A DNA stretch of 64,000 nucleotides, taken from the NCBI RefSeq assembly GCF_024223415.1, contig NZ_CP100500.1; one strand, 5' to 3'. Shown here in pieces: positions 1 through 43,090 of the stretch (positions within the stretch are counted from its first letter, which is position 1; every line of letters begins with the position of its first letter). The DNA comes from Escherichia coli. Lineage in GTDB: Bacteria; Pseudomonadota; Gammaproteobacteria; Enterobacterales; Enterobacteriaceae. The notes under the pieces are model-generated. The model searched no databases. It was not told the origin of the DNA and saw only the letters and a program-made list of their open reading frames with translations. Made by a program: the position numbers and the translations under genes.

Positions 1-158
1 GAGAATAGCATAGCGAAGCGCATTATAGAGCCGTTTGTGCAGAAGTTTATCCTGCTCCTGACCCATTCTGAACAGCAGCAGATCGCCTATGAATGCCCTC
101 AACTGGATCCCTCAGATAATCAAAATTGGTACTCGATTATAGTGCCATCGCCTGCCTA
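1..158 (+). CDS. 3' end of an upstream gene running off the window (about 52 codons, stop at 156-158); product unknown
   Basis: Open frame from position 1 (ENSIAKRIIEPFVQKF...IVPSPA*); no start in window, not in the ORF track. Confidence 0.25.
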
Positions 159-220: not shown

Positions 221-1486
221 ATGAAAAATTCTGAACTGAATCATCGTCGCCAGCAGGCGACTCCCCGTGGTGTGGGGGTAATGTGTGACTACTTTGTCGG
301 GAAAGCGGAGAACGCCACGCTGTGGGATGTGGAAGGCAATGAAGTTATCGACTTTGCCGCCGGTATTGCCGTACTGAACACCGGCCATCGGCATCCAAAA
401 ATTGTGGCGGCGGTAGAGCAGCAGTTGCAGTCGTTTACCCATACCGCTTATCAGATTGTCCCTTATGAGAGTTACGTTTCGCTTGCAGAACGTATTAATG
501 CTGTCGCCCCTGTCGATGGACCTGCCAAAACGGCATTTTTTACCACCGGTGCCGAAGCAGTTGAAAATGCGGTGAAAATTGCGCGCGCATACACCGGTCG
601 TCCGGGGATTATTACTTTTGGCGGTGGGTTCCATGGTCGTACATTCATGACCATGGCACTCACGGGCAAAGTCGCTCCCTACAAAACAGGGTTTGGCCCG
701 TTCCCGGGCTCAGTTTACCACGCCGTCTATCCTAATGATGCCCATGGCATTTCCGTTGATGATGCTCTCAGGAGTCTTGATCGTATCTTTAAAGCAGATA
801 TTCCTGCTGATCAGGTCGCCGCGATTGTACTGGAGCCCGTTCAGGGAGAAGGCGGGTTCAATGTCGCTCCGGCCGCTTTTATGCAGGCATTGCGTGAGTT
901 GTGCGATACACACGGGATCCTGCTGGTTGCCGACGAAGTACAGACCGGTTTTGCCCGTACTGGCAGGCTATTTGCGATGCAGCACTACGCTGTGAAAGCC
1001 GATCTGATAACAATGGCGAAAAGTCTGGCTGGCGGCTTCCCGTTATCGGGGGTTGTGGGGCGTGCCGAAGTCATGGATGCCCCGGCTCCGGGAGGACTGG
1101 GAGGTACTTATGCCGGTAATCCGCTGGCAGTAGCTGCTGCGCATGCGGTGCTGGATATCATTGAAGAAGAACAGCTCTGCCAGCGTGCCGATCAACTTGG
1201 CGAACATCTGAAAGAGGTGCTCAGTCAGGCCCGGGCAGGATGTCCGGCAATTGCGGATGTGCGTGGACTGGGTTCAATGGTGGCAGTGGAGTTTAACAAT
1301 CCGCAAAGCGGTGAGCCGTCGGCGGAATATGCACGACAGGTACAGCACAAAGCCCGGGAAAACGGCCTGCTGCTGTTGAACTGTGGTATCTACGGTAACG
1401 TTATCCGTTTTCTCTACCCTTTAACAATCCCGGATGCTCAGTTCAGCAAAGCGCTGAATATTCTGACCCGAATTCTGCGTACCTGA
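221..1486 (+). CDS. Class-III PLP aminotransferase, 4-aminobutyrate aminotransferase family (GabT/PuuE-like)
   Basis: Full-length similarity by eye to E. coli GabT/PuuE (…GIAVLNTGHRHP…, …TGFARTG…); start moved to ATG 221, which follows AGGAGA. Confidence 0.85.
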   Translation: MKNSELNHRRQQATPRGVGVMCDYFVGKAENATLWDVEGNEVIDFAAGIAVLNTGHRHPKIVAAVEQQLQSFTHTAYQIVPYESYVSLAERINAVAPVDGPAKTAFFTTGAEAVENAVKIARAYTGRPGIITFGGGFHGRTFMTMALTGKVAPYKTGFGPFPGSVYHAVYPNDAHGISVDDALRSLDRIFKADIPADQVAAIVLEPVQGEGGFNVAPAAFMQALRELCDTHGILLVADEVQTGFARTGRLFAMQHYAVKADLITMAKSLAGGFPLSGVVGRAEVMDAPAPGGLGGTYAGNPLAVAAAHAVLDIIEEEQLCQRADQLGEHLKEVLSQARAGCPAIADVRGLGSMVAVEFNNPQSGEPSAEYARQVQHKARENGLLLLNCGIYGNVIRFLYPLTIPDAQFSKALNILTRILRT

Positions 1487-1620
1487 TATGCACGGAAAAT
1501 TGCCACAACGGCAGGGAAGCCTTTCTTTCCCACGTGTCGTTTGTGCCAGGCGTGAGTGATTTATTCCTGATATCACCTTTTTCCGGCGGCAATAGTCGCC
1601 GGTGTAATACGGAATCTGTT

Positions 1621-2865
1621 ATGTCTGAAAATGCCACCTTTTCCCCTGAACAGTCATGCCGCAAACATACCGCTGCGCCGGCGAAATCCCTGAGTTTCGT
1701 TGAAGGTGTGTCGATGATTGTCGGCACGAACATTGGCGCAGGTGTACTGTCTGTGGCCTACGCCTCCGGTAAAGCCGGTTTTCTGCCGCTGTTATTCTGG
1801 CTCGTGCTGGTCGGGAGCCTGACCACCATAACCATGCTGTATGTGGCTGAATCGACTTTACGTACCCGTAAACATTTGCAGTTAAGCGGATTGTCACATC
1901 GTTATGTCGGACGCTGTGGCGCGCTGATAATGTTCCTTTCCGTCTGTGTGAACAGCGTTGGCGCTCTGATTGCATATATGAGCGGAAGCGGTAAGCTGCT
2001 GCACTCACTGCTGGGCATTTCTCCAGCTCTGGGTAGCATGTTATTTTTCATTCCCGCCGCAGGAGTGCTTTATCTCGGCCTGAAAGCGATAGGTCGCGGG
2101 GAAAAATTTATAAGTATCGGTATGGTGGTGATGCTCACTATCCTTATCGTCGCCACAATGCTGAAAGACACAACACAAATGCGTTACCTGCTGGATGGCA
2201 ACTGGCTGTATATGGTGCCGGTCTTTAACGTTGTGGCATTTTGTTTCTCGGCACAATATATTGTTCCGGAAATGGCGCGCGGTTTTTCTGATAAACCAGA
2301 AAAATTGCCGAAGGCAATTATGGTCGGGATGGGAATTACCTTCATTCTGCTGGCTCTGGTGCCTATGTCTGTCATAGCACTCAACGGGCTGGACAATATT
2401 TCTGATGTGGCGACCATTTCCTGGGGACGTGCGCTGGGTGAGTGGGCCTTTTTCTCTGCGAATCTGTTTGCTCTTTGCGCGATGCTGACTTCTTACTGGG
2501 GACTTGGTGGCAGTTTTCTGACCAATATCGTTGACCAGTTCAGTCCGGGCGATGACAGCCAGCCTCTAAGACGCTTTCTGTTACTGCTGATCGTTGTCAT
2601 ACCACCGTTTATTCTTGCTTATAGCGGCATGGTATCGTTTGTAAATGCGCTTTATTTTGCGGGGGTCTTCAGTGGCGTGGTCCTGTCTGTTATGCCCATT
2701 CTGATACTGAAAGGGGCGCGCCAGCACGGTGACCTGACACCTGGCTGGACGTGTCCTGCACTCATTATTCATCCGCTACTCCAGAGCTTTATTGTGTTGT
2801 TATATCTCTGTAGCGCTGCGTATGCAATTGCTTCTGCGCTGGGCCATCTCCCGGCAGGCTGGTAA
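1621..2865 (+). CDS. Amino acid permease, hydroxy/aromatic amino acid permease family (TyrP/Mtr/TnaB-like)
   Basis: Polytopic hydrophobic protein with the TyrP-like N-terminal motif (IVGTNIGAGVL); start chosen at internal ATG 1621. Confidence 0.7.
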   Translation: MSENATFSPEQSCRKHTAAPAKSLSFVEGVSMIVGTNIGAGVLSVAYASGKAGFLPLLFWLVLVGSLTTITMLYVAESTLRTRKHLQLSGLSHRYVGRCGALIMFLSVCVNSVGALIAYMSGSGKLLHSLLGISPALGSMLFFIPAAGVLYLGLKAIGRGEKFISIGMVVMLTILIVATMLKDTTQMRYLLDGNWLYMVPVFNVVAFCFSAQYIVPEMARGFSDKPEKLPKAIMVGMGITFILLALVPMSVIALNGLDNISDVATISWGRALGEWAFFSANLFALCAMLTSYWGLGGSFLTNIVDQFSPGDDSQPLRRFLLLLIVVIPPFILAYSGMVSFVNALYFAGVFSGVVLSVMPILILKGARQHGDLTPGWTCPALIIHPLLQSFIVLLYLCSAAYAIASALGHLPAGW

Positions 2866-3424
2866 ACATAAAGGAAAAGTATTATCGACCTCCTGTATAT
2901 TAAAATTGAGTTAGCATAGTGACGAACAGATTTGGCAGGGCATATGTAGCCTGCTCCCCTCCGGGGTTTAAAGCTCTTTTTGTAAGCAACGGGCGCATGT
3001 GCTGACCCACTCATTTGACATCATGACGGTTTATCTGTACGTCACCATAACGCATTTTATAAGAATGTTTTTTGTCCCATAACAGGTGTCCACTGGTTAA
3101 AAAGGTGGGCACCTGTCGTTACCAGTACTGGCTTAATTGCTACATACGGCTGTCGGTTTACGCTTACTTTCAACTTGTGGGTAAGGGGATGGAGTGCGAA
3201 TAAATGATCGAGCTTCGTGCGAATCACTGATCGAATACATCGGAATGCGCACTCTGAAGCAAACTTAAAACATCTCTGCACCATTCCATGCACGCATAAA
3301 AGTCATTCCGGCATTTCATTTTACATAACATAAACAGAACAATAATAATTACAACAACATTCACACCAGCATTACAGAACACACTCTGTCTGTTGTTATC
3401 ACCAGAAATATCAGGAGTATTTAA

Positions 3425-4591
3425 ATGATTATTTCCTCACCTGCAGATTACAGGGACGCCGCAAAACACAGACTGCCACGCTTTCTTTTTGATTACATAG
3501 ACGGCGGGGCTGTTACTGAAAAAACCATGCATGAAAATATGACCTCTTTATCTTCGGTCAGCCTCCGGCAGCAGGTGCTTTGTGGCGCCGGAGCCCCCGA
3601 ACTGAACACCACCATCCTTGATTCAGAATGGGCCATGCCTGTTGCTCTGGGCCCCGTCGGTGCCACTGGCATGTACGCCCGTCGTGGAGAGGTGCAGGCA
3701 GCCAGAGCGGCCTCAGCAATGAACATCCCTTATACTCTCTCAACCGTCTCCGTCTGCCCGATCGAAGAGGTCGCCGGACACGCTGACGGGCAACTGTGGT
3801 CCCAGTTATACGTCCTTCGGGATCGTGGTTATATGCAAAACGCACTTGAACGCGCCTGGACTGCAGGTATGAAAACCCTGGTATTTACCGTCGACATGCC
3901 TGTGCCGGGCTCCCGGTACAGGGATAACCATTCAGGGATGTCAGGTCCCCACGCCACACTGCGTCAGTATCTTCAGGCCGTTCTTCATCCCCGCTGGGCG
4001 CTGGATGTGGGAATTGCCGGTCGTCCTCTGTCATTTGGTAACATCGAAACGTACACCGGGCATAAAATGTCGATGGATGACTATATGGGCTTTATCAGCA
4101 AAAACTTTGATCCCTCTATTGCATGGAACGATCTCGAATGGATCCGTGATGGCTGGAAAGGTAAACTGATAATAAAAGGGATCCTTGTTCCGGAAGATGC
4201 AAAAAATGCTGTACGGCTTGGCGCGGATGGCATCATTGTCTCCAATCATGGCGGACGTCAGCTTGATGGTGCCATCCCCACGGCCAGGGCATTACCGGCG
4301 ATAGCAGATGCAGTGGGTGATGACATCACGGTACTGGCGGATTCAGGTATTCGTTCCGGTGTGGATGTGGTCCGGATGCTTGCTCTGGGGGCAAAAGGTG
4401 TGCTGCTGGGAAGAGCGTATATTTACGCACTTGCCGCTGCGGGAAAAAAAGGCGTTGAGCACCTGCTCAGACTTTATGCTGAAGATATGAAAGTCACCAT
4501 GACGCTGATCGGCGCTTCTTCTCCCGCTGATATCAGCAGCAGAAATCTTGAATATCTGGAAAAAGAATTCTCCCGACATTCATCATCCTGA
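3425..4591 (+). CDS. FMN-dependent alpha-hydroxy-acid dehydrogenase, L-lactate dehydrogenase (LldD) paralogue
   Basis: Collinear with E. coli LldD as recalled (…[12 protein letters not shown]…, …[11 protein letters not shown]…). Confidence 0.85.
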
Positions 4592-4667
4592 CCAAAGTAA
4601 ACCAGGCACATATCCTCCATGCTCCCGGGACAACAGAGCGCAGTTCGGGCACTACAGCCTTACTGGT

Positions 4668-4958
4668 TTACCAGTATGGTCTGCATTCAGAAGGGACCGA
4701 CAACAACTCAGCCAGCTCCGCCACAAGGCGGTTGGTTTCCAGTAATTTCCGCAGTCTCACCGAAAAATAGCCTTGTGCCACATCGTGATTTTCACAGGCT
4801 TCCCTGCGCGTCAGCCCCAGAACAAAATAATCCCTCAGCGCCAGGATAACCTTTTTACTGTTAACGGGAGAAAGCGCTGCAAGTATTTCAAAATGTGCAT
4901 CTGACATGCTTCCGGGCGTGTCATATATCCCGGCAACACGACTGTGATATATCCCCAC
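4668..4958 (-). CDS. PapB/FocB-family small transcriptional regulator (fimbrial-switch type)
   Basis: PGSMSDAHFEILAAL…VILALRDYFVLGLTRREACENHDVAQGYFSVRLRKL matches the PapB core; long AT-rich region upstream. Confidence 0.6.
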   Translation of the reverse strand: MGIYHSRVAGIYDTPGSMSDAHFEILAALSPVNSKKVILALRDYFVLGLTRREACENHDVAQGYFSVRLRKLLETNRLVAELAELLSVPSECRPYW

Positions 4959-5839
4959 GGATACCCCCTGATTACCGCCTGCCCTTATTCCCCGGGAGAC
5001 TGAGAACAGGCTGAGATATAAGTATATTTATATAATATTATATTTCGGATTATTCGCAGAATACTGAAAAAACCGGTCGGGTCAACCGCAGGAAAACAGA
5101 AAGAGCCTGTAATAACGCATAGAAACGATATTTAAAACCAGAACAACCATCAAAAACAGAACATAAAGTCACAAAAACCGTCAAAAACGACCAGGTACTG
5201 CATTTTTAACACCTTTTTTAAATTTTGGTATCTTTACAAAAAACACCACCTGAAAATCATTTATTTAATTAAATAAAGTAAATTGCTTAGCCTGATAAAT
5301 ATTGTTCTGCAACACTCCGGTTCAGGCAGAATGTATTTTCATGGCTTACCCATTCAGGCGTAAATGCGATATTCCGCACATGACAGAGACCACACAAAGA
5401 AAAACAGGCGCAGACAGCCGGATACAGGATAAATTAACACTTCACAATCCGGCATTATTACGCTACAACATTCACGGGCAACTGCCCTTGTAACGAAAAC
5501 TTCCTTAATTTGGGTATTTGTGTGCCGTACGTCTGTGGTGTACGGCTTTTTTTCATTTTTTTATAATTTCTATAAATAAAGATATAATCAATACGTATAT
5601 ACCGTCGTATAAGATCCTTCTTCACCTTTCATTAAAAAGATCCGGAACAAAACAGACGATGAGATTGTGGTACTACCAGATTTACACCCTTACTCCGGAT
5701 AATTCACAAATCCTGAAATTACGACCTTCCTCCCGTTGCCGGACTGAAACAATATGCAGACACTCTGACGGACATGTCAGCAATGCACTCGCTCTCTGCT
5801 GTACAGGTATTACACCATACTTCACCAGGAGGTCTGTTC

Positions 5840-7483
5840 ATGGATATCTGGTCACAGGACTATGATCCCGTCGGAAATATCTGGCTGTCCAGCCTGACAG
5901 CATCGCTTCCCATTCTGTTTTTTTTCTTTGCCCTGATTAAGCTGAAGCTTAAAGGCCATGTTGCTGCCACATGGACTGTCATTATCGCGCTCATCGTGGC
6001 CCTTCTTTTTTATAAGATGCCTCTCACAGCCGCACTCGCTTCCGTGCTCTATGGTTTCTTCTATGGCCTGTGGCCCATTGCCTGGATAATTATTGCCGCA
6101 GTTTTTGTTTATAAAATTTCTGTAAAAACCGGACAGTTCGATATCATTCGCGCTTCAGTGCTGTCCGTTACGCCTGATCAGCGTATTCAGATGCTGATTG
6201 TGGGGTTTGCCTTTGGTGCCTTTCTCGAAGGGGCCGCCGGTTTTGGAGCACCTGTGGCCATAACAGCAGCACTGCTCGTGGTGCTTGGGTTCAGACCACT
6301 TTACGCGGCCGGGTTGTGTCTGATCGTCAATACAGCTCCCGTGGCCTTTGGTGCGATGGGGATCCCCATTCTCGTCGCAGGCCAGGTTACCGGGCTGGAC
6401 AGCTTTGAAATCGGTCAGATGGTTGGTCGTCAGTTACCCTTCCTGACCATTATTGTGTTGTTCTGGATCATGGCAATTATGGATGGCCTGCGTGGCATTA
6501 AGGAAACCTGGCCCGCCGTTCTGGTTGCCGGAGGTTCCTTCGCCATAGCCCAGTTTCTCAGTTCCAACTTTCTGGGCCCGGAGCTCCCGGACATCATATC
6601 ATCACTGGTGTCGCTGGTTTGTCTGACGCTTTTCCTGAAACGCTGGCAGCCTGTACATATTTTTCGCTTTGACAACACCCCGTACCAGAATACGGACTCA
6701 TCACCACTGAGCCGTTCACAGGTGATACGGGCATGGTCGCCATTTCTGTTTCTGACTGCCACGGTGACACTCTGGAGTCTTCCTCCCTTTAAAACACTGT
6801 TCGCACCGGGCGGTACACTGCATGACCTGGTGATTACTGTTCCTGTGCCGTATCTTGATAAACTCATTGCACGTATGCCTCCGGTAGTCAGCGAAGCCAC
6901 TGCTTATGCCGCGGTGTTTAAGTTTGACTGGTTCTCTGCCACCGGTACCGCCATCCTGTTTGCAGCATTGCTCTCTGTGATCTGGCTGAAGATGAAACCG
7001 TCAGATGCTGTCAGCACCTTTGGCAGTACACTGAAAGAACTTGCCCTGCCCGTCTATTCCATCGGCATGGTGCTGGCTTTCGCCTTTATCTCTAATTATT
7101 CGGGGCTTTCATCCACACTTGCCCTGGCTCTGGCACAGACAGGCAGCGCCTTTACGTTCTTCTCACCGTTTCTGGGCTGGCTGGGCGTATTTCTGACGGG
7201 ATCAGATACCTCATCCAATGCATTATTTGCATCACTCCAGGCAACGGCAGCTCATCAGATCGGGGTCTCCGATATTCTGATGGTTGCCGCCAACACCACA
7301 GGGGGAGTAACCGGCAAAATGATTTCTCCACAGTCCATTGCCATCGCCTGCGCAGCAACCGGACTTGTTGGCAAAGAATCAGAACTCTTTCGTTTTACTG
7401 TTAAACACAGCCTGATCTTCACCTGTATTGTGGGAGTCATCACCTCTCTCCAGGCATGGGTATTCACCTGGATGATCCCATGA
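5840..7483 (+). CDS. L-lactate permease (LctP family), LldP paralogue
   Basis: Near-collinear with E. coli LldP from [10 protein letters not shown]; start at ATG 5840. Confidence 0.85.
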
Positions 7484-7658
7484 AATATTTGTTGTGCCGG
7501 ATCTTTTCCGGCATGATGATGTGTGTTACAGCCTCTGGCTTATAACACTCTGCAGTAGTGCTGGCTGACGTGACTGCCGGATATTCTGGTTTTCTTAAGT
7601 CACGGATATACTGACGACAGGGTTTCACATTCAATATTCAACTGACAGGTATGTTTAT

Positions 7659-8951
7659 ATGGCACACCGCTACCTGACACGACAGGATCACAGGACCTTA
7701 TCTCTGGCTGCGCTCGGAGGCGCACTTGAATTCTATGACTTCATCATTTTTGTTTTTTTCGCCGCCGTCATTGCTGAGCTCTTTTTCCCGCCGGATATAC
7801 CGGAATGGCTCCGTCAGCTCCAGGCATTTGGTATATTTGCTGCCGGGTACCTGGCACGACCTCTCGGCGGAATAATTCTGGCCCATTTTGGCGATATACT
7901 TGGGCGAAAGAAAATGTTCACCCTGAGTATTTTGCTTATGGCAGTACCGACACTTGTTATCGGTATTTTGCCAACCTACAGCTCTGTGGGTACCCTGGCT
8001 CCTGTGCTGCTTCTTCTGATGCGTCTGCTTCAGGGCGCAGCGATTGGCGGTGAAGTGCCCGGTGCCTGGGTTTTTGTTGCTGAGCATGTACCGGAGCGCC
8101 GAACCGGTATTGCATGCGGAACACTGACAGCAGGTTTAACCGCCGGGATCCTGCTTGGTTCAGTGGTTGCCACACTTGTCAATTCAGTATTGTCTCAGGA
8201 TATTGTTTACGATTACGGCTGGCGATTCCCCTTCCTTCTTGGTGGTGTTTTTGGCCTGGCAGCAATGTACCTGCGCCGCTGGCTGGAGGAAACTCCGGTA
8301 TTTCTGGAAATGAAAGCCAGAAAAAAACTGGCTCAGGAATTACCGGTAAAAGCTGTCGTTTTAAGACATAAAAAAGCTGTTGTGATTTCCATGCTGTTGA
8401 CATGGCTGATATCCGCAGGGATTATTGTGGTGATACTGATGGCACCGGTCTGGTTACAGAAACAGTATGACTTTTCGCCGACAGTCACCTTACAGGCTAA
8501 CAGCATTGCAACTATTATGCTGAGTCTGGGATGCCTGCTGGCCGGTATGGCCATTGATTCTTTTGGTGCCGGAAAAACCTTTATATCAGGCAGTATTCTG
8601 CTTGGATGTTCAGGATGGCTGTTCTATCACACTGTCGGTGAGTATCCTGAAATGTTGTTCTGGCTGTATGGGCTAGCGGGATTCAGTGTGGGCATTGTCG
8701 GGGCCGTCCCTTATGTTCTCGTGCGTATTTTCCCCGCAGAGGTCAGGTTTACCGGCATTTCATTCTCTTACAATGTCGCTTATGCAGTGGTGGGGGGACT
8801 GACTCCTGTTGTGGTCACGATGTTAACGGAAATCTCCCCGATGGCTCCAGCATGGTATGTTATGCTGTTATCACTTGTGGGATCAGGACTGGGAATATGG
8901 TTCTGCAGGGATCCCCGTCTTTTTATCTGTCACGCAGACAAAGACAAATAA
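7659..8951 (+). CDS. MFS transporter, metabolite:H+ symporter family
   Basis: 12-TM-like hydrophobic profile with MFS motifs (GDILGRKK). Confidence 0.8.
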   Translation: MAHRYLTRQDHRTLSLAALGGALEFYDFIIFVFFAAVIAELFFPPDIPEWLRQLQAFGIFAAGYLARPLGGIILAHFGDILGRKKMFTLSILLMAVPTLVIGILPTYSSVGTLAPVLLLLMRLLQGAAIGGEVPGAWVFVAEHVPERRTGIACGTLTAGLTAGILLGSVVATLVNSVLSQDIVYDYGWRFPFLLGGVFGLAAMYLRRWLEETPVFLEMKARKKLAQELPVKAVVLRHKKAVVISMLLTWLISAGIIVVILMAPVWLQKQYDFSPTVTLQANSIATIMLSLGCLLAGMAIDSFGAGKTFISGSILLGCSGWLFYHTVGEYPEMLFWLYGLAGFSVGIVGAVPYVLVRIFPAEVRFTGISFSYNVAYAVVGGLTPVVVTMLTEISPMAPAWYVMLLSLVGSGLGIWFCRDPRLFICHADKDK

Positions 8952-9016: not shown

Positions 9017-9585
9017 TCCGGTCAGATGCTCACCAGACCGCGCCCCCCATCAGTCTCCATATCCTCCCCCTTGCCCTGCCGGATGATAGCGCCACGCGAC
9101 ATCACCAGGTAGTGGTCCGCCGTAATGTTCCGGTGAAATCGTCCTGACACGTTTCCGGGCTCGTTATCAGCGGTTTTTGCGAATGATCGCCGCCCTGCGA
9201 TGGTTGATTTATTTTATTGCGCCCCGGCGTCTGCCTTGCCAGGTACCGGAGGCGGGCTCTGAAGTACTGAGTAGGGTGAGCGCGTCAGGCCACGAAGTAC
9301 TGACACGGGAGTTTGTGGCAGGCAGTGAAGTCCTGACCAGGGTAAGGGAGGGGCTGACGTGCATGCCCTGACTGTCAGCCAGGGCGCGTGGTGACTGACT
9401 TTCTCAATAACCCGCTGTCAGGCGCTCAACGCCCGACAGCAGGCCATGGCCCGGTGTGCAAAGACCTGACGGCAGGCCTTGTGTCACCCGGATAAGGTAA
9501 ATCCCTCAAGAGGCAGCAACTCAGCCAGTCGGTCCTCAGGCCACTCCGGCAGGCGCGTCAGTACGTCCGTCAGCCAGGCATGTTG

Positions 9586-11300
9586 CAAAATCGCATCGTG
9601 TTCGATCGCCGATTCGCATCGTACTCGATCGCTGATTCGCATTGTCCGATCATTGATTCGCATCCTGCAGTCACTCCTGGAATTAACTTTTCTGCATAGT
9701 CTCTACTGCTGAATTTTCTTCTCAGTAGAGGTCTTGATGGCTAAAAAGAAAATCTCCCGGAGTTCTATGGAAACCTGTTTAAAAATTCTCCAACTTAAGT
9801 TCGAGCAGCATCAGACAAACCGGACTATCGCACTTACACTGAACATCAGTCCCTCGACTGTTTCCGATGTATTGTCCCGCTTTAAGAACACGTCAATATC
9901 GTGGCCTTTGCCTGAATCGATGACAACTCAACGTCTTGAGGTGCTTATCTTTCCTGGCAAGCAAGCCCCGGAAATGACGCCGGCACTGCCTGACTGGCTC
10001 TACATTGATACCGAACTACGTCGTGTGGGAGTCACTCGTCAGCTCTTATGGATGGAATACAAACATCAGGCTGGTGAATATGCTCTGGGATACTCACAGT
10101 TCTGTCGTCGTTATCTGCACTGGAAAAAAAGCGTGCGTTACTCCATGCGGCAGGAACATCGTGCTGGTGAAAAACTCTTTATCGACTTCTGTGGTCCTAC
10201 AGTCCCTGTTGTTAATCCGGAAACCGGAGAAGAACGCAGAGTGGCCATCTTTGTAGCCGTGATGGGAGCATCTAACTATACCTATGTTGAAGCGTGCGAA
10301 GGTCAGGATCTGATGTCGTGGCTAAACGCCAACAGCCGATGTCTGACCTTCCTTGGTGGTGTACCAAAACTGCTGATCCCGGATAACCTTAAAAGTGCTG
10401 TCAAAAAAGTCGATCGCTACGAACCGGTCATCAATGAGAGTTACCAAGCATTCGCAGAGCACTACAATACAGTGATACTCCCAGCAAGACCAAGAAAACC
10501 AAAGGATAAAGCGAAAGCCGAAACGGCTGTACTTATCGTCGAACGATGGCTGCTTGCCCGCATTCGCAACGAGACCTTCTTTACACTCAGGAGCCTGAAC
10601 AGTCGTCTACGCGAGTTGTTGGTAGAGCTGAATAACCGTCCCATGAAAGGATACGGCAACCAGACGCGTGCAGAGCGTTTTGCCCTGCTGGATGCCCCTG
10701 CATTATCAGCCCTGCCAGTATCAGAGTATGAGTTCGCTGAATACAAAACGGTGAAAGTTGCACCTGATTACCATGTTGAATACGCCCACCACTGGTACTC
10801 AGTACCTCATGAACTGATCGGACAACGGTTATCCCTGAAAGCCACTCAGACAGTGATCCAACTCTGGCATCAGGGGCAATGCGTGGCACAACATCCGCGC
10901 AGCCTCCATGAGTACAAGCACACGACCAACCCTCTACACATGCCTGCAGCACATCAGGCACACAGCAGATGGACACCGGAAAGTCTTCAGGAAGCAGCCA
11001 GAAAGATAGATCCTTATACAGCAATGACAGTGGATAGCATGCTGAACAGTAAACGTCATCCTGAACAGGCTTACCGGACAGTCCTGGGGCTGCTGAGCCT
11101 GAAAAAACACTATGGTCGTGAGCGTCTGGAAAAAGCCTGTCATGTTGCCCGGGAGTGCAGAACGTCGGAAAGAAGGTTCATCGAAAACCTTCTGCGTAAT
11201 AACAGGGAAAACCTTTCCCTCCGGAAAAAGAGAGGCAGACGGAGGGAAACGTATCAAAAATCCAGTTAATACGCGTGATGACTGCCTGCATCACGTTTTC
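9586..11300 (+). mobile_element. IS21-family element remnant (istA only; boundaries approximate)
   Basis: Tandem ~21-bp repeats at 9586-9670 upstream of istA; element truncated before istB. Confidence 0.45.
9734..11269 (+). CDS. istA: IS21-family transposase IstA (cognate istB absent)
   Basis: N-terminal HTH plus catalytic core typical of IstA; no IstB-like ORF follows. Confidence 0.8.
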   Translation: MMAKKKISRSSMETCLKILQLKFEQHQTNRTIALTLNISPSTVSDVLSRFKNTSISWPLPESMTTQRLEVLIFPGKQAPEMTPALPDWLYIDTELRRVGVTRQLLWMEYKHQAGEYALGYSQFCRRYLHWKKSVRYSMRQEHRAGEKLFIDFCGPTVPVVNPETGEERRVAIFVAVMGASNYTYVEACEGQDLMSWLNANSRCLTFLGGVPKLLIPDNLKSAVKKVDRYEPVINESYQAFAEHYNTVILPARPRKPKDKAKAETAVLIVERWLLARIRNETFFTLRSLNSRLRELLVELNNRPMKGYGNQTRAERFALLDAPALSALPVSEYEFAEYKTVKVAPDYHVEYAHHWYSVPHELIGQRLSLKATQTVIQLWHQGQCVAQHPRSLHEYKHTTNPLHMPAAHQAHSRWTPESLQEAARKIDPYTAMTVDSMLNSKRHPEQAYRTVLGLLSLKKHYGRERLEKACHVARECRTSERRFIENLLRNNRENLSLRKKRGRRRETYQKSS

Positions 11301-14748: not shown

Positions 14749-15167
14749 AGACGTTACTTAAGGAAGAAGATGAGCAACAGGCTACACGTACGATAAAAGA
14801 CATTTGGGTCATGAATACACGATCTGGATGGACGACATAAAGGTGATGATCTGCTCAAACCAACCAGCGTTTATGATCGATGCGACAGACAGAAGGAATG
14901 AACTACTACAATAAATAAAATCTGTCGCTGTGTGGCAAGGAAGATTTTCTTCAGGAGTGCTGGCTTATTGGGATTTTTAACACAATTTAGAGTGAGTTCA
15001 ATCAGCCACAAATCTGGATTCCTATGTCCGGATTTTTACCACAATCCCCTTATTGATTTTTATTAATCATTCACAATCTGTGATCTAGCTCGATTGCGAT
15101 TTGTATTTGACTTAATATAATCACCATGATTGTATTAAATCAAATTATAACAACAGGCGTAAAAACC

Positions 15168-16121
15168 ATGAACATTAAAAAATCAATAGAACGAGTACCC
15201 GGCGGTATGATGGTTGTACCACTGGTGATTGGCGCCATTATCAATACCTTTTCACCACAAGTGCTGGAGATCGGCGGGTTCACCACCGCGTTGTTCAAAA
15301 ACGGCGCTGCTCCTCTGATTGGTGCCTTCCTGCTCTGTATGGGAGCAGGGATCAGCGTGAAAGCCGCACCTCGGGCGTTGTTTCAGGGGGGGGCAATAAC
15401 CCTGACCAAACTGCTTGTCGCCATTGCGATTGGCCTAGGTGTTGAGCATCTGTTCGGTCAGGAAGGTATCTTCGGATTGAGCGGCGTGGCAATCATTGCG
15501 GCAATGAGTAACTCAAACGGCGGACTTTACGCGGCGCTAGTGGGAGAGTTTGGCAACGAACGCGATGTCGGCGCTATTTCAATTCTATCTCTGAATGATG
15601 GACCGTTCTTTACAATGATCGCGCTGGGAGCTGCTGGTATGGCGAACATACCAATCATAGCGCTGGTCGCAGTGCTGATTCCGCTGGTGATAGGGATGCT
15701 CCTCGGTAACCTTGATCCCAACATGCGTGACTTCCTGACCAAAGGTGGACCACTATTGATCCCGTTCTTCGCGTTTGCGCTGGGTGCGGGGATCAACCTT
15801 GAAATGCTTCTGCAGGGTGGGCTGGCTGGGATTCTGCTTGGCGTACTGACCACCTTTATCGGCGGTTTCTTTAACATTCGCGCCGACCGTCTGGCTGGGG
15901 GAACCGGTATTGCCGGCGCGGCGGCTTCCAGCACAGCCGGAAATGCGGTAGCGACGCCGCTGGCGATTGCTCAGGCAGACCCTTCGCTGGCTGAAGTGGT
16001 TACCTCTGCCGCACCGCTGATTGCCGCATCGGTGATCACAACCGCAATTCTGACGCCAGTCCTAACCTCTCGGGTCGCCAAAAATCGGGCGCGTCAGATC
16101 TCTGAGGAGAAAAAAGTATGA
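15168..16121 (+). CDS. KdgT-family permease (2-keto-3-deoxygluconate transporter-like)
   Basis: MNIKKSIERVPGGMMVVPL matches the KdgT N-terminus; polytopic membrane protein. Confidence 0.75.
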   Translation: MNIKKSIERVPGGMMVVPLVIGAIINTFSPQVLEIGGFTTALFKNGAAPLIGAFLLCMGAGISVKAAPRALFQGGAITLTKLLVAIAIGLGVEHLFGQEGIFGLSGVAIIAAMSNSNGGLYAALVGEFGNERDVGAISILSLNDGPFFTMIALGAAGMANIPIIALVAVLIPLVIGMLLGNLDPNMRDFLTKGGPLLIPFFAFALGAGINLEMLLQGGLAGILLGVLTTFIGGFFNIRADRLAGGTGIAGAAASSTAGNAVATPLAIAQADPSLAEVVTSAAPLIAASVITTAILTPVLTSRVAKNRARQISEEKKV

Positions 16122-17389
16122 AGATGATCGTTATCGCCGACGACTTTACGGGTTCTAACGATACTGGCGTGCAGTTGGCGAAGAAAGGAGCTCGCACGGA
16201 AGTTTTGCTAACGCCGGAGCAAAAGCCTTCGCGTCGCACGGATGTACTGGTGCTCAACACTGAAAGTCGTGCGGTGCCGGCCGCACAGGCAGCGAAAGCG
16301 GTAACGCATGCTCTGGCTCCCTGGTGCAAAGGAGAGATGCTCCCGCTGGTATACAAGAAAATCGACTCCACATTTCGCGGCAACGTCGGCGCGGAAGTGA
16401 CGGCAGCGATGCGAGCCGCTAAACGGACTCTGGCAGTGATCGCTGCGGCGATCCCAGCTGCAGGACGCACAACCCGTAACGGATTATGCCTGGTCAACGG
16501 TACGCCTCTACTGGAAACCGAGTTTGCCAGCGATCCGAAAACGCCGGTTTTCTCCTCGCGCATTGCGGAACTGATCGCGCTACAAAGCGATATCCCGGTA
16601 CATGACGTGTCGCTTGATGACGTGCGACGCGGACAGCTCAGCGCCCTTCTTAAAGCTTTTGCAGCCCAGGGGGAATGCATGGTGGTAGTCGATGCGGTGG
16701 AAGATCACGACCTGTCTCTGATTACCCAGGCTATTTGTGAACAGGCTACATTTCCTCTACTGGTCGGTGCGGCAGGACTGGCGAATGCGCTACCGGTCAG
16801 AATGTTCATGCAGGAGAAGAAGGCTCTGCCAGTGCTAGTAGTTGCAGGATCGATGAGCGAAGCCACCCGGCGGCAGGTTGAAAAAGCGCTCACCCAGGCA
16901 CACGCCAACGTGGTGGACATTGATGTCTCACGACTGATTTCCTCGAAGGCCGAACAGGAAATAGCCTCTGTGGTGGAACAGGCCAGCGTGTTGCTCAGTC
17001 ACCAGAAACACACGATTCTTCGCACCAGCCGTAGTGCGGATGACCGACTGATGATCGATGCTCTGTGTACTGAAGCAGGCGTAGGCCGCCAACAGCTTGG
17101 CGAGATGCTCAGCCAATGTCTAGGGATCATTACACTGCGCATTATCGAACAGGCGCGTATTGGCGGCCTGTTCCTGACCGGAGGAGATATTGCCACTGCT
17201 GTTGCCAGTGCGCTTGGTGCTGAAGGCTATCGCATCCAGAACGAGGTCGCCCCATGCATTCCCTGCGGGATGTTTGTGAACAGCGAAATCGACGATCTTC
17301 CGGTGATCACGAAAGCTGGCGGATTCGGTTCAGACAGCACCCTTTGTGATGCACTTTATTTTATTGAGGAGATGTACAGTGGTAACTAA
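16118..17389 (+). CDS. Four-carbon acid sugar kinase, DUF1537 family (OtnK/DtnK-like)
   Basis: MKMIVIADDFTGSNDTG N-terminus typical of the family; overlaps the KdgT stop. Confidence 0.75.
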   Translation: MKMIVIADDFTGSNDTGVQLAKKGARTEVLLTPEQKPSRRTDVLVLNTESRAVPAAQAAKAVTHALAPWCKGEMLPLVYKKIDSTFRGNVGAEVTAAMRAAKRTLAVIAAAIPAAGRTTRNGLCLVNGTPLLETEFASDPKTPVFSSRIAELIALQSDIPVHDVSLDDVRRGQLSALLKAFAAQGECMVVVDAVEDHDLSLITQAICEQATFPLLVGAAGLANALPVRMFMQEKKALPVLVVAGSMSEATRRQVEKALTQAHANVVDIDVSRLISSKAEQEIASVVEQASVLLSHQKHTILRTSRSADDRLMIDALCTEAGVGRQQLGEMLSQCLGIITLRIIEQARIGGLFLTGGDIATAVASALGAEGYRIQNEVAPCIPCGMFVNSEIDDLPVITKAGGFGSDSTLCDALYFIEEMYSGN

Positions 17390-18362
17390 AACAATAGCGA
17401 TTACGATGGGCGATCCGGCAGGTATCGGTCCAGAAATAATTGTCAAGGCACTTTGTGAAAATGAACTTAGCGGCGCACCGCTGGTAGTGGTGGGATGCCT
17501 ACAGACCCTACAACGTTTGCAAACCAAAGGACTGGCAGAAGGAGTGACTTTTCGCGCAATTGACAATGTCACGCAGGCGCGATTTTCACAGGGCGTGATT
17601 CACGTAATCGATGAGCCGCTGGCACAGCCCCAAGCGCTGGAGCCAGGTAAAGTGCAGGCCGAGGCGGGAGATCTGGCCTACCGTTGCGTAAAACGTGCGA
17701 CGGAGTTGGCACTGAAAGGTGATGTACACGCCATCGCCACTGCGCCGCTGAATAAAGAAGCACTACATCAGGCGGGACATTATTATCCGGGACATACCGA
17801 ACTGCTGGCGACGTTGACCGGAAGCCGTGACTATGCGATGGTGCTTTACACCGACAAGCTGAAGGTGATTCACGTTTCGACCCATATTGCGTTACGCAAG
17901 TTTCTCGACACTCTCAACAGGCAACGCGTGGAGACTGTTATAGGCATCGCGGATCACTTCCTTAAGCGTATTGGCTTAGCCCAACCGCGCATCGCCGTAG
18001 CCGGGATCAATCCCCATGCAGGCGAAAACGGTCTGTTTGGCGATGAAGAAATTCGCATTGTATCGCCAGCCATTGAAAACATGAGGGCGAAAGGAACAGA
18101 CGTTTTCGGACCATGTCCACCGGATACCGTGTTTTTGCAGGCATACGAGGGTCATTATGACATGGTGGTGGCGATGTACCACGATCAGGGACATATTCCG
18201 CTCAAACTGCTTGGATTCTATGATGGCGTGAATATCACCGCCGGTCTGCCGTTTATTCGTACCTCTGCTGATCACGGGACTGCGTTTGATATTGCCTGGA
18301 CGGGCAAAGCAAAATCTGAGAGCATGGTCATATCGATTAAACTGGCAATGCAACTGGCATAA
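17379..18362 (+). CDS. PdxA-family NAD-dependent dehydrogenase (PdxA2-like 4-phospho-hydroxy-acid dehydrogenase)
   Basis: IAITMGDPAGIGPE plus MYHDQGH/ADHGTAFD motifs; GTG start overlapping the kinase stop. Confidence 0.75.
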   Translation: MVTKTIAITMGDPAGIGPEIIVKALCENELSGAPLVVVGCLQTLQRLQTKGLAEGVTFRAIDNVTQARFSQGVIHVIDEPLAQPQALEPGKVQAEAGDLAYRCVKRATELALKGDVHAIATAPLNKEALHQAGHYYPGHTELLATLTGSRDYAMVLYTDKLKVIHVSTHIALRKFLDTLNRQRVETVIGIADHFLKRIGLAQPRIAVAGINPHAGENGLFGDEEIRIVSPAIENMRAKGTDVFGPCPPDTVFLQAYEGHYDMVVAMYHDQGHIPLKLLGFYDGVNITAGLPFIRTSADHGTAFDIAWTGKAKSESMVISIKLAMQLA

Positions 18363-18371
18363 TTTCCTGTT

Positions 18372-19142
18372 ATGAAAGGACAACACCGTCTGGATAAAAT
18401 AGTGGCGTATTTGAAAAATCATACGCTGGCGACCGTGGAACAACTTGTAGATGTGGTAGAAGCATCGCCCGCGACGATCCGACGTGATCTGATCAAACTG
18501 AATAAACAGGGTGTGATCAGCCGCAGCCACGGAGGTGTTGCCCTGCGGCGTTTTGAACCCGCGCAACCCACAACCAATGAAAAGCAATTACGATCGCCTG
18601 CGGAAAAGCGGGCGATCGCGCGTTTTGCAGCCTCAATAGTACAGGCCGGCGACGCAGTGGTTTTGGACGCCGGCACCACCATGCTGGAGTTGGCTAAATG
18701 CCTGACTCATTTGCCACTCAGGGTGATCACGGTCGATCTGCATATCGCCCTGTTTTTGTCCGAATTTCCCCAGATTGAAGTCACCATTGTGGGTGGTCGT
18801 ATTGATGAAAGCAGTCAGTCCTGTATCGGCGACTTTGGTCGCAAAATGTTACGTAGCGTCTACCCTGATATCGCATTCATGAGCTGTAACACCTGGAGTA
18901 TGGAAAAAGGTGTCACAACTCCGACGGAGGACAAAGCAGGACTCAAGCAGGAGATTATCGCTAACGCCCAACGTAAGGTTCTACTGGCCGACAGCAGCAA
19001 ATATGGCGCGCATTCGCTGTTCAACGTAACGCCGCTGAGCAGTTTTACCGATGTTGTGACCGATGTGCATCTGCCACGCCCTGTCCAGGCAGAGCTGGAA
19101 GCCCACTCCATTGCCCTTACGCTAGTCCAGCCTGGATTTTAA
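18372..19142 (+). CDS. DeoR-family transcriptional regulator
   Basis: N-terminal HTH ([22 protein letters not shown]) with DeoR-type C-terminal domain. Confidence 0.8.
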
Positions 19143-19429: not shown

Positions 19430-20464
19430 TCAGACGGTGGTCATATCAATAACGATTCTGCCGTTGATTTTTCCTGCGCGCATGCGGCCGAATACAGAGT
19501 TGATATTTTCCAGTGGCTCCGTGGTGACCTCTGCATGAACCTTGTGCTGACCGGTAAAGAAGAGAGCTTCCTGCAAATCCTTACGGGTCCCTACAATAGA
19601 ACCCCTCACAGTTATACCATCAAGCACCATATCGAATATCGACAAATCAAATTTCCCCGGCGGCAGACCGTTCAGTACCATCGTTCCGCCACGACGCATC
19701 ATACCTGTGGCCTGAGAAAATGCGGCTGGTGACACTGCCGTGACCAGTACACCATGTGCACCACCAGTTTCTGCATGAATGCGCTGTACCGGATTTTCAC
19801 GCACGGCGTTCACCACAACAGAGGCTCCAAGTCTGCAGGCCAGCTCCAGTTTACTGTCATCCACATCAACAGCCGCAACATTCATCCCCATCGCGGCGGC
19901 ATACTGAACGGCCAGATGTCCCAGTCCTCCGACACCGGAAATCACCACCCATTCCCCCGGGCGGGCTTCCGTCATTTTCAGTCCTTTGTAAACAGTCACG
20001 CCGGCGCAAAGCACGGGGGCTATATGGTGAAAATCAACATTATCCGGAAGAAGTCCGACATAATTCGCATCCGCAAGACAGTATTCCGCAAACGTGCCAT
20101 TCACCGAATAACCAGCATTTTGTTGGGAATGACACAGGGTTTCCCAGCCCCCCAGGCAATGCTCACAGTAGCCGCATGCAGAATACAGCCAGGGAACCCC
20201 TACCCGATCGCCTTCCCTGATATGTTTTACGCCGGCACCCACGGCCACCACGTGACCTACCCCTTCATGTCCCGGAATAAACGGCGGACGTGGTTTGACT
20301 GGCCAGTCACCATCTGCAGCATGAAGATCGGTATGGCATACCCCCGTGGCTGCTATTCTGACCAGAATTTTTCCGGGTTCAATGGCCGGCACGGTAACTT
20401 CATCAATAACCAGCGGTTTTCCAAATTCTGTGACAATAGCGGCTTTCATGGTTTTGAGTTGCAT
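19430..20464 (-). CDS. Zinc-dependent alcohol dehydrogenase (AdhP-like)
   Basis: GVCHTDLH and GHEGVG zinc-binding motifs, GLGGLG NAD-binding motif. Confidence 0.85.
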
Positions 20465-20494
20465 TTTTGATTCCTCTGTTAGCGAAAGACAAAA

Positions 20495-22015
20495 TCAGAA
20501 CAGACCAGCCGGTGATGTGTCATAACTGACCAGAATATTTTTAACCTGCTGATAGTGGCTGAGAGCCAGCTTATGTGTTTCCCTGCCAATACCAGAATTT
20601 TTATACCCTCCGAATGCGGCATGTGCCGGGTAATAATGGTAACAGTTTGTCCATATACGCCCGGCCTGGATCCCTTTTCCCATTCTCCATGCCCGGTTTA
20701 TATCTGTCGTCCACACACCCGCGCCAAGTCCGTATTCCGTATCGTTGGCGATACTGAGCGCCTCTTCTTCTGTCCTGAACGTGGTTATGCCAATGACAGG
20801 TCCGAAGATTTCCTCCCTGAAACATCGCATCTGATTATGGCCTTTGATCAGGGTCGGCTGAATGTAGAAGCCATTCTGTAAATGTCCCTCGTGGATGACA
20901 GGTGCACCACCGGTGAGTATTTCTCCGCCCTCATCCCTTGCTATGCGGATCCAGGAAAGGATCCTGTCATACTGTTCCCGGGAAGCCTGTGCACCTATCA
21001 TTGTGTCTGTATCAAACGGATCTCCACGGCGGATATTTTCGATTTTATGCAGAACCCGCTCCACAAAAGCCTGAAAGATCGTTTCCTGAACCAGGATACG
21101 TGAGGGACAGGTACAGACCTCCCCCTGATTAAAGAAGCCAAGTACAGCACCTTCAACCGCCTTTTCAAGGTAGCTGTCATCTCCGTTCATCACATCGTCA
21201 AAGAAAATATTGGGGGATTTACCGCCCAGTTCGACTGTACTGGGGATAATATTTTCAGCTGCGCAGGAGAGAATATGCCGCCCGACGGGCGTGGAGCCTG
21301 TGAATGCAATTTTATCGATACGACGGCTGCGGGCCAGAGCTTCACCAGCTTCCTGCCCGAAACCATGAACAACGTTAAGCACACCCGGCGGTAAAAGATC
21401 ACCGATTAATTCCAGCAGTACGCAAATACCCAGAGGGGTCTGTTCTGCGGGCTTCAGTACCACACAGTTTCCTGCCGCAAGTGCCGGTGCCAGTTTCCAG
21501 GCCGCCATCAGCAAAGGAAAATTCCATGGAATAATCTGACCGACCACTCCCACAGGTTCATAGATGTGCCATGCCATCATATCCCTGCCCACCTCTGCTG
21601 CACTGCCTTCCTGCGCCCGGAGACAGCCCGCAAAATAACGGAAGTGGTCAACTGCCAGTGGAATATCGGCCGCGAGTGTTTCGCGTACCGGCTTGCCGTT
21701 ATCCCAGGTTTCTGTCAGTGCCAGGATTTCTGTGTTCGCTTCAATACGATCGGCAATGGCAAGCAGTATATTCGCCCGCTCCGTGACCGGTGTTGCCCCC
21801 CATCGGGCTCTGGCCTCATGTGCCGCAGTGAGCGCGCTTTCAATATCCATCTCACCCGAACGTGGGAATTCAGCAATATTTTCTCCGGTAACAGGAGTGG
21901 TGCTGGTGAACCATCGCCCGCCGACAGGATCAACAAACTGACCGTTGATAAAGTTACCGTAGCGTTTTTTGAATGACACTTTTGAGCCGGGTAATCCCGG
22001 ATGTATGTATTTCAT
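20495..22015 (-). CDS. NAD-dependent aldehyde dehydrogenase (AldB-like)
   Basis: Collinear by eye with E. coli AldB; ELGGKSP and catalytic Cys context GEVCTCPSR. Confidence 0.9.
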   Translation of the reverse strand: MKYIHPGLPGSKVSFKKRYGNFINGQFVDPVGGRWFTSTTPVTGENIAEFPRSGEMDIESALTAAHEARARWGATPVTERANILLAIADRIEANTEILALTETWDNGKPVRETLAADIPLAVDHFRYFAGCLRAQEGSAAEVGRDMMAWHIYEPVGVVGQIIPWNFPLLMAAWKLAPALAAGNCVVLKPAEQTPLGICVLLELIGDLLPPGVLNVVHGFGQEAGEALARSRRIDKIAFTGSTPVGRHILSCAAENIIPSTVELGGKSPNIFFDDVMNGDDSYLEKAVEGAVLGFFNQGEVCTCPSRILVQETIFQAFVERVLHKIENIRRGDPFDTDTMIGAQASREQYDRILSWIRIARDEGGEILTGGAPVIHEGHLQNGFYIQPTLIKGHNQMRCFREEIFGPVIGITTFRTEEEALSIANDTEYGLGAGVWTTDINRAWRMGKGIQAGRIWTNCYHYYPAHAAFGGYKNSGIGRETHKLALSHYQQVKNILVSYDTSPAGLF

Positions 22016-22081
22016 GACATTCTCCCTGAGCGAAATTCAGTGTACGTTCATGCAGGAACAAAACTGTTGCAGATAACCTTA

Positions 22082-22098
22082 AGCAACACCCATGCCAC
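22082..22098 (-). promoter_or_regulatory. Candidate sigma-54 (-24/-12) promoter for the aldehyde/alcohol dehydrogenase operon
   Basis: Minus strand reads TGGCAT-N5-TTGCT with GG…GC spacing as in the TGGCAC-N5-TTGCW consensus, about 70 bp upstream of the ALDH start. Confidence 0.5.
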
Positions 22099-22256
22099 CA
22101 AGTTGTTACACACAGTTAACAACAACAAAAACAGCCTGTTAGCCCAAAAAACAGACAACCGAAAAAGAATCACCACAGGAAAATGTGAAGCAAATAAAAC
22201 ATTTTCGATACACAAATGATACAATCATGCAACACAACTGTTGCAAGGATTGAATT

Positions 22257-24017: not shown

Positions 24018-24337
24018 GAACAACGTGCTGCCGGATACGTTATTTGCGGGAAATTCCTGTTCTGTAAAATATATCTCAGGTTGTTAAAACCCTGTCATTC
24101 TTCCATGTGAACAGTATGAGAAACATCACACGGGTATATTCACGGCCGGCACAACCACAGACATAAATGATATCCTGCGCATCATTTCCTGATGCTCTGA
24201 TACTGAGTTAACCACTTATTTACATCTGACGATAAATTGTTTATTCATTCTTCAGGGTAAATAAAGCCATAAGGAGTGTGATATTCACGATACGCTGAAA
24301 ATCGGTGAACTGAAAAATGGCAGTTACAGGGGGAAAT

Positions 24338-33062: not shown

Positions 33063-33321
33063 AAATACCTCAATTTTAGTTAATAAATCAGTAAAGTAGC
33101 AGATATTCCCGCTATAATAGCCAAAATAGCTGCTATGCATAGCCGATATGTTCTGAAAAATACAGTAATCGGGCATACCTGATGTTGAACAAAACGATAA
33201 GGTTGATTCAATTCAGCCTGTATTATTAGCTACGTAACATCATTCACATTGCTCACTCCTGACATCTTCTGATGATTATTTCAACGACGCCTTATTCATG
33301 GTCGTTTTCCTTTTTCATGAA

Positions 33322-41180: not shown

Positions 41181-41210
41181 AGGCACCTCCCCCAATTTTT
41201 ATGCCTGCAT

Positions 41211-42929: not shown

Positions 42930-43090
42930 TTTTATTCGTTATCACCACCAATGCAATATATTGATATGACTTGATGTTTTATTTTTCGGTGTCGATTTCG
43001 ATTGTTTTTTGTTCATCACTGACGCATAACGCCCACCAGCGCAACGCTGAAAGCCAGTCAGTAAACTGGCTTCGGTCATTGTGCACTACG

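Follow-up and report, generated by a model that had tools for sequence, protein, structure and literature searches.

What a regulator of the PapB/FocB family does between two lactate-type catabolic genes, with no fimbrial operon beside it, is the question raised by a block of genes at positions 221-8951 of a 64-kb stretch (hereafter the window) of the Escherichia coli assembly GCF_024223415.1, contig NZ_CP100500.1. An earlier note on this DNA had described the block as second copies of core catabolic genes with extra transporters, and had suggested that the embedded PapB-type regulator could influence fimbrial phase variation elsewhere in the genome. Gene calls were made from the map of open reading frames (ORFs) and from Pfam and NCBIfam scans, and were cross-checked with the RefSeq annotation of identical DNA in TUM1886; every gene named in the earlier note (the aminotransferase, LldD, the PapB-type regulator, LldP, and the transporters) was recovered where it had been placed (Table 1). 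At an identity of at least 99%, the block was present in 11 of 5426 complete E. coli genomes. The best explanation of the whole, to which we give a probability of roughly 0.5, is that positions 221-8951 are a rare, horizontally acquired mosaic metabolic islet within a large genomic island, in which the regulator would control its own gene and modulate the divergent genes for the LldP paralogue and a major facilitator superfamily (MFS) carrier, with possible additional action in trans on fim.

The identity of the regulator was established by several routes. Its protein matched PF03333 with 94.1 bits against a gathering score of 29.4 (E 5e-27), over profile positions 18-89 of 91; RefSeq names it 'PapB/FocB family fimbrial expression transcriptional regulator' (WP_000513495.1, with the 79-aa form as WP_001278172.1), and a phmmer search of the PDB recovered FocB (PDB 3m8j; E 6e-14). 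The AlphaFold (AF2) model, with a predicted local distance difference test score (pLDDT) of 88.4, contained four core helices and a short low-confidence N-terminal helix, and chains A and B of FocB 3m8j were its sole significant Foldseek matches (TM 0.73-0.82; next E >0.05); the model shows the all-helical FocB-type fold. In the family alignment, R51 and C55 are the equivalents of PapB R61 and C65 and are kept in 75/81 and 78/81 relatives, respectively, and the equivalent of PapB L82 is also kept in the island protein. Exchange of PapB R61 and C65 for alanine is described in PMC7734786, citing Xia & Uhlin 1999, as causing loss of DNA binding; by that account, and judged from the aligned sequences, the key DNA-binding residues of the island protein are intact. 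The reading frame is intact as well, with a Shine-Dalgarno-like GGGGG 5 nt before the GTG, and the gene is monocistronic: lldD is convergent with it, 76 bp downstream, and lldP is divergent.

The regulator is also a true orphan between the LldD and LldP paralogues, as the earlier note had claimed: chaperone, usher, and pilin genes (PapD, PapC, and Fimbrial domains) were absent from all 64 kb of the window and, in the identical island of TUM1886, from the 20 kb to its left. An exhaustive HMMER search of 1.84 billion representatives placed the protein in a 50%-identity cluster of its own, the next relatives being 57%, 52%, and 49% identical, and its close relatives were all from E. coli. Four of the five nearest clusters head chaperone-usher operons and the remaining one is another orphan, so the fimbrial context is, on these sequences, ancestral and the orphan state derived; the regulator would descend from the heads of such operons and would since have lost that context. 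A plasmid origin was rejected, there being no plasmid match above 60% identity. The 57%-identity cluster (L005-L007, gene at 7001-7261) is itself an island-borne orphan; it is flanked by an Hha-family gene and a large autotransporter, after which comes a conserved ORF of 159-163 aa and unknown family.

Orphans of this kind, defined as PapB-family genes on acquired DNA without a cognate adhesin cluster (PMC7734786), have been described before, and the island regulator fits this known class of orphan or non-fimbrial PapB paralogues. With the orphan of pMB2 and its IncF relatives it shares the absence of an adjoining adhesin cluster, a location on acquired DNA, neighboring nutrient-acquisition and mobility genes, and low-GC surroundings (PMC7734786); it differs in being chromosomal, in forming its own 50% cluster, in having Arg rather than Lys at the PapB-61 position, and in its replaced tail. 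The pMB2-type IncF plasmid gene, which was compared in place of pMB2 (MK492688) and p1ESCUM (CU928148.1) themselves, was 42% identical to the island protein over 65 residues. The likeness to PapB, FocB, and SfaB extends to the Pfam family, the FocB 3m8j fold, the DY(L/F)V, Arg, and Cys positions, and the long AT-rich upstream region, at identities of ~38% to PapB-named relatives and ~36-37% to FocB (structural alignment); however, the island gene does not head a chaperone-usher operon and has no downstream pilin, chaperone, or usher genes, and no divergent PapI-type gene, pap-like GATC pair, or aromatic-Tyr C-terminal motif was found. TosR (tosRCBDA, a non-fimbrial adhesin locus) is likewise a PapB-family protein of a genomic island that is not tied to fimbriae, but it still heads an adhesin/secretion operon under its own control, whereas the island gene is monocistronic.

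A second copy of the gene, in strain 23CRST013 (NZ_AP045773.1 1792063-1792398, L019), a strain that also carries the island block, allowed its history to be followed. This copy is another orphan, with a LysR/CoA-transferase/thiolase/3-hydroxybutyrate dehydrogenase set on one side and yebF on the other; the acquired catabolic island around it also holds an alpha-glucoside phosphotransferase system. The two copies share 271 bp at 94% identity (window 4709-4978), a patch that takes in the first 83 codons and the ribosome-binding site; outside it the two loci are unrelated in sequence, and the promoter region is not common to both. The shared codons differ by seven synonymous changes and one non-synonymous change, and the resulting ratio of non-synonymous to synonymous rates (dN/dS 0.043, Fisher p 3e-4) speaks for past purifying selection on the protein and against its being simply a decaying relic. 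Homology to the sister gene breaks at 4709, where the 3′ end has been swapped: the last 13 codons (4668-4708), ELLSVPSECRPYW, are unrelated to the family (the second copy's tail there reads VYYQ...), and as a result Leu85-Leu86 stand where 62/81 relatives have Tyr or Phe and 63/81 have Tyr, such that the C-terminal aromatic-Tyr motif is missing. The predicted last helix nevertheless extends to residue 87, and the fold is confident to that point.

These data bear on whether the gene is an inert relic, in which case it would be the remaining 5′ piece of a fimbrial operon that has otherwise decayed, carried along passively by the island and without present function. The chaperone-usher context of four of the five nearest relatives would suit such an origin, as would the exchanged 3′ end with its lost motif, a native promoter region that the two copies do not have in common, the existence of a frameshifted variant, the disruption of the papB-like gene by the insertion sequence (IS) element IS66 in some genomes, and the restriction of the block to 11 of the 5426 genomes. 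We nonetheless consider a relic unlikely, given the low dN/dS between the copies, the open frame with its GGGGG 5 nt before the GTG, and a Pfam domain that is covered to profile position 89 of 91, is confidently folded through residue 87, and retains its DNA-binding residues.

If the protein is active, the nearest DNA of the kind on which it would act lies immediately upstream of its own gene. The intergenic region of 881 bp has a GC content of 39%, falling to a minimum of 34.5% in 400-bp windows, in agreement with the ~800 bp of AT-rich DNA described in the earlier note. It carries no annotated feature and occurs only in the 11 island genomes; no relatives were found outside those genomes, in the DNA upstream of K-12 lldP, or in the DNA upstream of related papB genes. 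Eight promoter-like sites were counted against 3.0 expected, and triplets of A/T (W) recur with a period of 9-10 bp (z ~4.3), a signal that was judged too non-specific to be accepted as the 9-bp PapB-type repeat. A PapI partner was rejected after no Pfam match was obtained in the two longest intergenic ORFs (shorter ORFs were not scanned), as was a pap-type Dam/Lrp switch: the sole GATC pair in the region lies at 5613 and 5639, 26 bp apart, against ~102 bp between the GATC sites of pap.

Long AT-rich upstream regions (27-39% GC) were present in all five family members examined, and PapB, FocB, and TosR bind AT-rich DNA upstream of their own genes, in interplay with H-NS and Lrp (PMC12388093, PMC5956150). 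By analogy with these proteins, the island regulator would oligomerise on AT-rich, curved, and probably H-NS-silenced DNA; because the nearest such DNA is the region at 4959-5839, which is upstream of its own gene and common to the divergent lldP-MFS pair, it would regulate its own expression and may modulate the lldP-MFS promoter region.

The same region is a possible site of a small independent transcription unit. The 316 nt ending at the terminator-like hairpin (5241-5556, + strand) folded with a z of -2.74, and promoter-like sites at 5206-5260 lie ~300 nt before the hairpin. The stretch has no relatives beyond the 11 identical genomes; an ORF of 50-63 aa within it gave no match to Pfam, and inspection by eye showed no Shine-Dalgarno sequence before it. 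All this is no more than a hint of a small transcript. A CsrC-like small RNA (sRNA) match from Rfam, 26 nt long and sub-threshold, is a hairpin and was set aside.

A stronger local role can also be envisaged, in which the protein is a dedicated metabolic regulator of lldD, lldP, and the MFS gene that takes the place of LldR, or an island anti-silencer for catabolic genes. Its position between lactate permease and lactate dehydrogenase genes where no lldR is present, the AT-rich divergent region of 881 bp held in common with lldP, the catabolic island around the only other copy, and the nutrient-acquisition genes that likewise surround the pMB2 orphan (PMC7734786) would all be in keeping with such a role; however, what the two copies share is confined to 271 bp of coding sequence and their flanks are unrelated, so there is no conserved regulator-target pair. 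The PapB family, moreover, has no known ligand-binding domain through which lactate could be sensed, the order lldD-papB-lldP is unlike lldP-lldR-lldD and its parts have different origins, and the association occurs in one clonal sequence only. We regard a dedicated local regulator as improbable on these grounds. Equally doubtful is the wider proposal that an E. coli-only PapB clade has left adhesin control and now acts as an anti-silencer or local regulator of acquired catabolic loci (here lldP-MFS, perhaps lldD, in the slot held by LldR in the core operon); it draws on two contexts only, both known copies lying within acquired catabolic clusters, and, if true, would provide the first PapB/FocB-family regulator of a catabolic locus.

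The regulator could alternatively have no local target at all and act purely in trans, adjusting fimbrial and adhesin programs elsewhere (FimB switching, pap, foc, sfa), which would couple carriage of the island to the adhesion state of the host. Precedents come from the family: the orphan papB/pefB paralogue of pMB2 (OrfG), whose plasmid type is the 42%-identical gene mentioned above, is sufficient alone to damp fim-dependent autoaggregation (PMC7734786); fim is a target of PapB, SfaB, and PefB, and pap and flagella are targets of TosR (PMC12388093, PMC10392849). The retained equivalents of R61, C65, and L82 would permit the same here. On the other side, many PapB paralogues (DaaA, FaeB, FanA/B, and ClpB) are without cross-talk to fim, as the review in PMC12388093 sets out, switching activity depends on the C-terminal region according to the account of Holden et al. 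given in PMC7734786 and the extreme end of that region is replaced in the island protein, and an exclusive trans role would be unusual in a family that normally binds upstream of its own genes. No sequence evidence pointed specifically to pap, foc, or sfa as targets. Action in trans alone is thus held to be a tentative and rather unlikely alternative. Under the preferred reading of local autoregulation and lldP-MFS modulation, action in trans is retained as a possible addition: when expressed, the regulator may act on other AT-rich sites that respond to PapB, the fim switch region among them, in the manner of the pMB2 orphan.

Several observations weigh against this preferred reading. The association of the papB-like gene with lldP is seen in one lineage only, at 100% identity, and comparison therefore lends no support to a functional link between them. 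The 9-10 bp phasing of the intergenic region is generic to curved, H-NS-prone AT-rich DNA; it fits PapB-type binding without being specific to it. The selection signal reflects the period after divergence of the two copies and need not extend to the present, and the loss of the aromatic-Tyr motif could have impaired activity. Finally, IS elements have entered lldD, the gap between permease and lldD, and the AT-rich region or papB-like gene in individual carriers; because papB (in L004), the intergenic region (in strain 673), or lldD (in GF60) is interrupted in this way, the islet is not under strong selection in all carriers.

The remainder of the block was resolved into parts of separate origin. 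Its first module consists of a MocR/GabR-type regulator, which runs off the left end of the window and is RefSeq-annotated in TUM1886 at L001 18609-20102 (GntR and Aminotran_1_2 domains), a divergent class-III aminotransferase, and a permease. The aminotransferase scored E 2e-133 with Pfam Aminotran_3 and 842 bits with NCBIfam PRK06777, and is 75% identical to K-12 PuuE, 57% to GabT, and 88% to its Citrobacter sedlakii orthologue; the regulator is 85% identical at the amino acid level to the C. sedlakii neighbor. The permease matches TyrP weakly, and its orthologues in C. sedlakii (89%), Klebsiella pneumoniae (86%), and Serratia (80%) always stand beside MocR and aminotransferase genes. Over 4.25 kb the module is colinear with the C. 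sedlakii chromosome (78% nucleotide and 85-89% amino acid identity), and nucleotide homology stops exactly at the permease stop codon, position 2865. The K. pneumoniae version lies between rpoH and liv genes, and the Serratia version comprises the three genes plus an aldehyde dehydrogenase; the combination of a MocR gene, a class-III aminotransferase gene divergent from it, and a permease gene linked to them is kept across genera.

As part of the explanation favored at the outset, this module would be a unit for uptake and transamination of gamma-aminobutyrate (GABA) or other omega-amino acids under GabR(MocR), native to Citrobacter and Klebsiella chromosomes. Compared with the GabR(MocR)-gabT(-gabD)-permease modules of Klebsiella, Citrobacter, and Serratia, it has the same three-gene order, but it has been moved into an E. 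coli genomic island and is without the aldehyde dehydrogenase of Serratia; it also differs from the E. coli gab operon, which has a GabP-type APC permease in place of the HAAAP-family permease of the island. A linked succinate-semialdehyde dehydrogenase was absent from the island, Citrobacter, and Klebsiella and was seen in Serratia only; the core gabD and sad genes of E. coli could supply this function. In TUM1886, the DNA to the left of the window and directly beside this module (L001 12626-18467) encodes a LysR regulator, pxpA, a biotin carboxyl carrier, biotin carboxylase, pxpB/pxpC-like genes, and a DUF1097 gene; speculatively, this cluster could carry out an ATP- and biotin-dependent lactam opening that feeds an omega-amino acid to the aminotransferase.

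An IS remnant, 83% identical at the nucleotide level to annotated transposase genes on hundreds of plasmids, lies at the junction that follows; it accounts for a sub-threshold Rfam match to an AfaR-like sRNA at 3088-3182, which was rejected. The LldD paralogue beyond it passed the NCBIfam model L_lactate_LldD (596 bits, cut-off 550) and is 63% identical to K-12 LldD; its closest relative outside E. coli, at 81%, is a stand-alone K. pneumoniae gene with TetR and RND-efflux genes as neighbors. A scan of contigs for LldD yielded this K. pneumoniae locus alone, in an unrelated context, and the idea of the block as a conserved operon outside E. coli was consequently rejected. The LldP paralogue passed PRK10420 (1089 bits, cut-off 918) and is 86% identical to K-12 LldP (~77% nucleotide identity to core lldP), the homology beginning 15 nt before the ATG and ending at the stop codon. 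The MFS carrier is 76-79% identical to core-chromosome MFS proteins of Citrobacter, Cronobacter, and Kluyvera, the C. rodentium orthologue lying between mog and satP, and 30% identical to YhjE, the sole K-12 MFS transporter compared.

Although the island thus encodes LldP-like and LldD-like proteins, as does the core lldPRD locus, no GntR/FadR-type lldR was found in the block, and the order lldP-lldR-lldD is replaced by lldD, the papB-like gene on the opposite strand, and lldP, an arrangement both reversed and interrupted; homology to the core locus is confined to coding sequences. Since their levels of divergence and closest relatives differ, the island lldD and lldP were, on sequence comparison, not inherited as one operon. 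Because the first module ends at 2865 and is followed by the IS scar, and because lldD, lldP, and the MFS gene have separate relatives, the block is a mosaic of independently derived modules and not a single unit. The islet would add to the cell an extra FMN-dependent L-lactate/2-hydroxy-acid dehydrogenase and an extra lactate-family permease together with the MFS carrier.

For the aminotransferase, lldD, and lldP, the islet appears to provide further, diverged copies of core functions. The number of places hit per genome by gabT+lldD+lldP, concatenated into one query and searched in sensitive mode, was counted as a stand-in for direct inspection of the core loci; the median was four, and the island genomes mostly had five (9/11, with four in MS 119-7 and six in one genome in which the island is split), suggesting that core lld, puuE, and gabT are kept alongside the island genes. 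On this indirect count, the earlier note's description of second copies of GabT/PuuE-, LldD-, and LldP-like functions stands, and the island genes are not the only copies of these functions in the strain. The HAAAP permease and the MFS carrier have no close K-12 paralogues. In the same survey of 5426 genomes, core lldP was matched at ~77% nucleotide identity in >5300.

The genomic island has clpA on one side of its insertion site and serW/infA on the other; where the island is missing, as in one strain compared, the site holds infA, tRNA-Ser, RtT, and clpA. An ARAGORN scan of the window detected no tRNA at the island border, serW being situated past the left end. The right boundary of the block is formed by gene fragments and a transposase gene, and the arrangement of the window diverges from that of TUM1886 from 9742 onward. 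The remainder of the window contains IS elements, more catabolic clusters, a TOTE defence gene, and a P4-like element, followed by core genes.

Table 1. Positions of the principal features of the block and its surroundings in the 64-kb window.
Feature	Coordinates	Strand	Remarks
MocR/GabR-type pyridoxal phosphate-dependent regulator, 5′ end (first 34 codons)	1-102	-	Continues left of the window; divergent from aminotransferase
PuuE/GabT-like class-III 4-aminobutyrate (omega-amino acid) aminotransferase	221-1486	+	
HAAAP (Trp_Tyr_perm) permease	1621-2865	+	Final gene of the GabR-type module; PF03222 E 5e-30
IS (transposase) remnant	~3064-3184		About 120 bp; module junction
LldD paralogue, flavin mononucleotide (FMN)-dependent 2-hydroxy-acid/L-lactate dehydrogenase	3425-4591	+	Pfam FMN_dh E 4e-126
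Orphan PapB/FocB-family helix-turn-helix regulator	4668-4958	-	96 aa from GTG 4958; alternative ATG 4907 gives 79 aa
Divergent intergenic region, papB-like gene/lldP paralogue	4959-5839		881 bp; candidate regulatory target
Intrinsic-terminator-like hairpin	5524-5553	+	10-bp stem, 6 GC pairs, TTTTTTT tail
Best sigma-70-like promoter match	5560-5588	+	TTTATA-17-TATAAT, 10/12; toward lldP; consensus match only
LldP paralogue, lactate/glycolate permease family	5840-7483	+	Pfam Lactate_perm E 8e-227
MFS metabolite:H+ symporter-family carrier	7659-8951	+	TIGR00883 297 bits, under the cut-off
Gene fragments	9022-9120 and 9484-9582		RefSeq annotated
Transposase ORF	9734-11269	+	Pfam rve and Mu-transpos_C_2 domains
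Integrase	37123-38325		Of the island
clpA	38904-41195		

Further along the same island, two accessory catabolic clusters were recognized: one at 15126-19142, with a KdgT permease, a DUF1537-type kinase, a PdxA-like dehydrogenase, and a DeoR regulator, and one at 19430-25822, with a zinc alcohol dehydrogenase, an aldehyde dehydrogenase, a sigma-54 activator, and a Na:alanine symporter. A TOTE conflict-system primase-helicase gene (27604-29955, - strand) is adjoined by an inovirus Gp2-type/YagK-YfjJ gene and a DUF3987 gene (30116-33176), a neighborhood characteristic of island backbones of the CP4-57-like type. Two type I-F CRISPR direct repeats with one spacer (38604-38631 and 38665-38692, - strand; Rfam CRISPR-DR4, 50 bits each) are located in the gap from the island integrase to clpA and form a minimal orphan array at the clpA-infA CRISPR site. 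A P4-like satellite element has been inserted at ~42000-52000, where it separates clpS from cspD; its cargo comprises an integrase, an Icd-like protein, a DNA primase, a PerC-family regulator, a ProQ/FinO-family protein, and a terminase small subunit.

Taken as a whole, the observation is real and the earlier note was right in outline, but the finding is a modest and fairly ordinary one, because stray PapB-type regulators are already known. All of the element families, the orphan PapB paralogues, and the first module as a conserved unit of neighboring genera have been recognized before, and its practical significance is limited by this familiarity, by the great rarity of the block, and by its partial decay. 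An advantage in gut or urine, where GABA and lactate both occur, could come from the extra genes for their use. If the regulator is active, acquisition of a metabolic island would bring along a small protein that binds AT-rich DNA and through which adhesin phase variation (fim, pap) could be rewired or the island's own genes freed from H-NS silencing, and islands for nutrient use would in this way be tied to colonization behavior.

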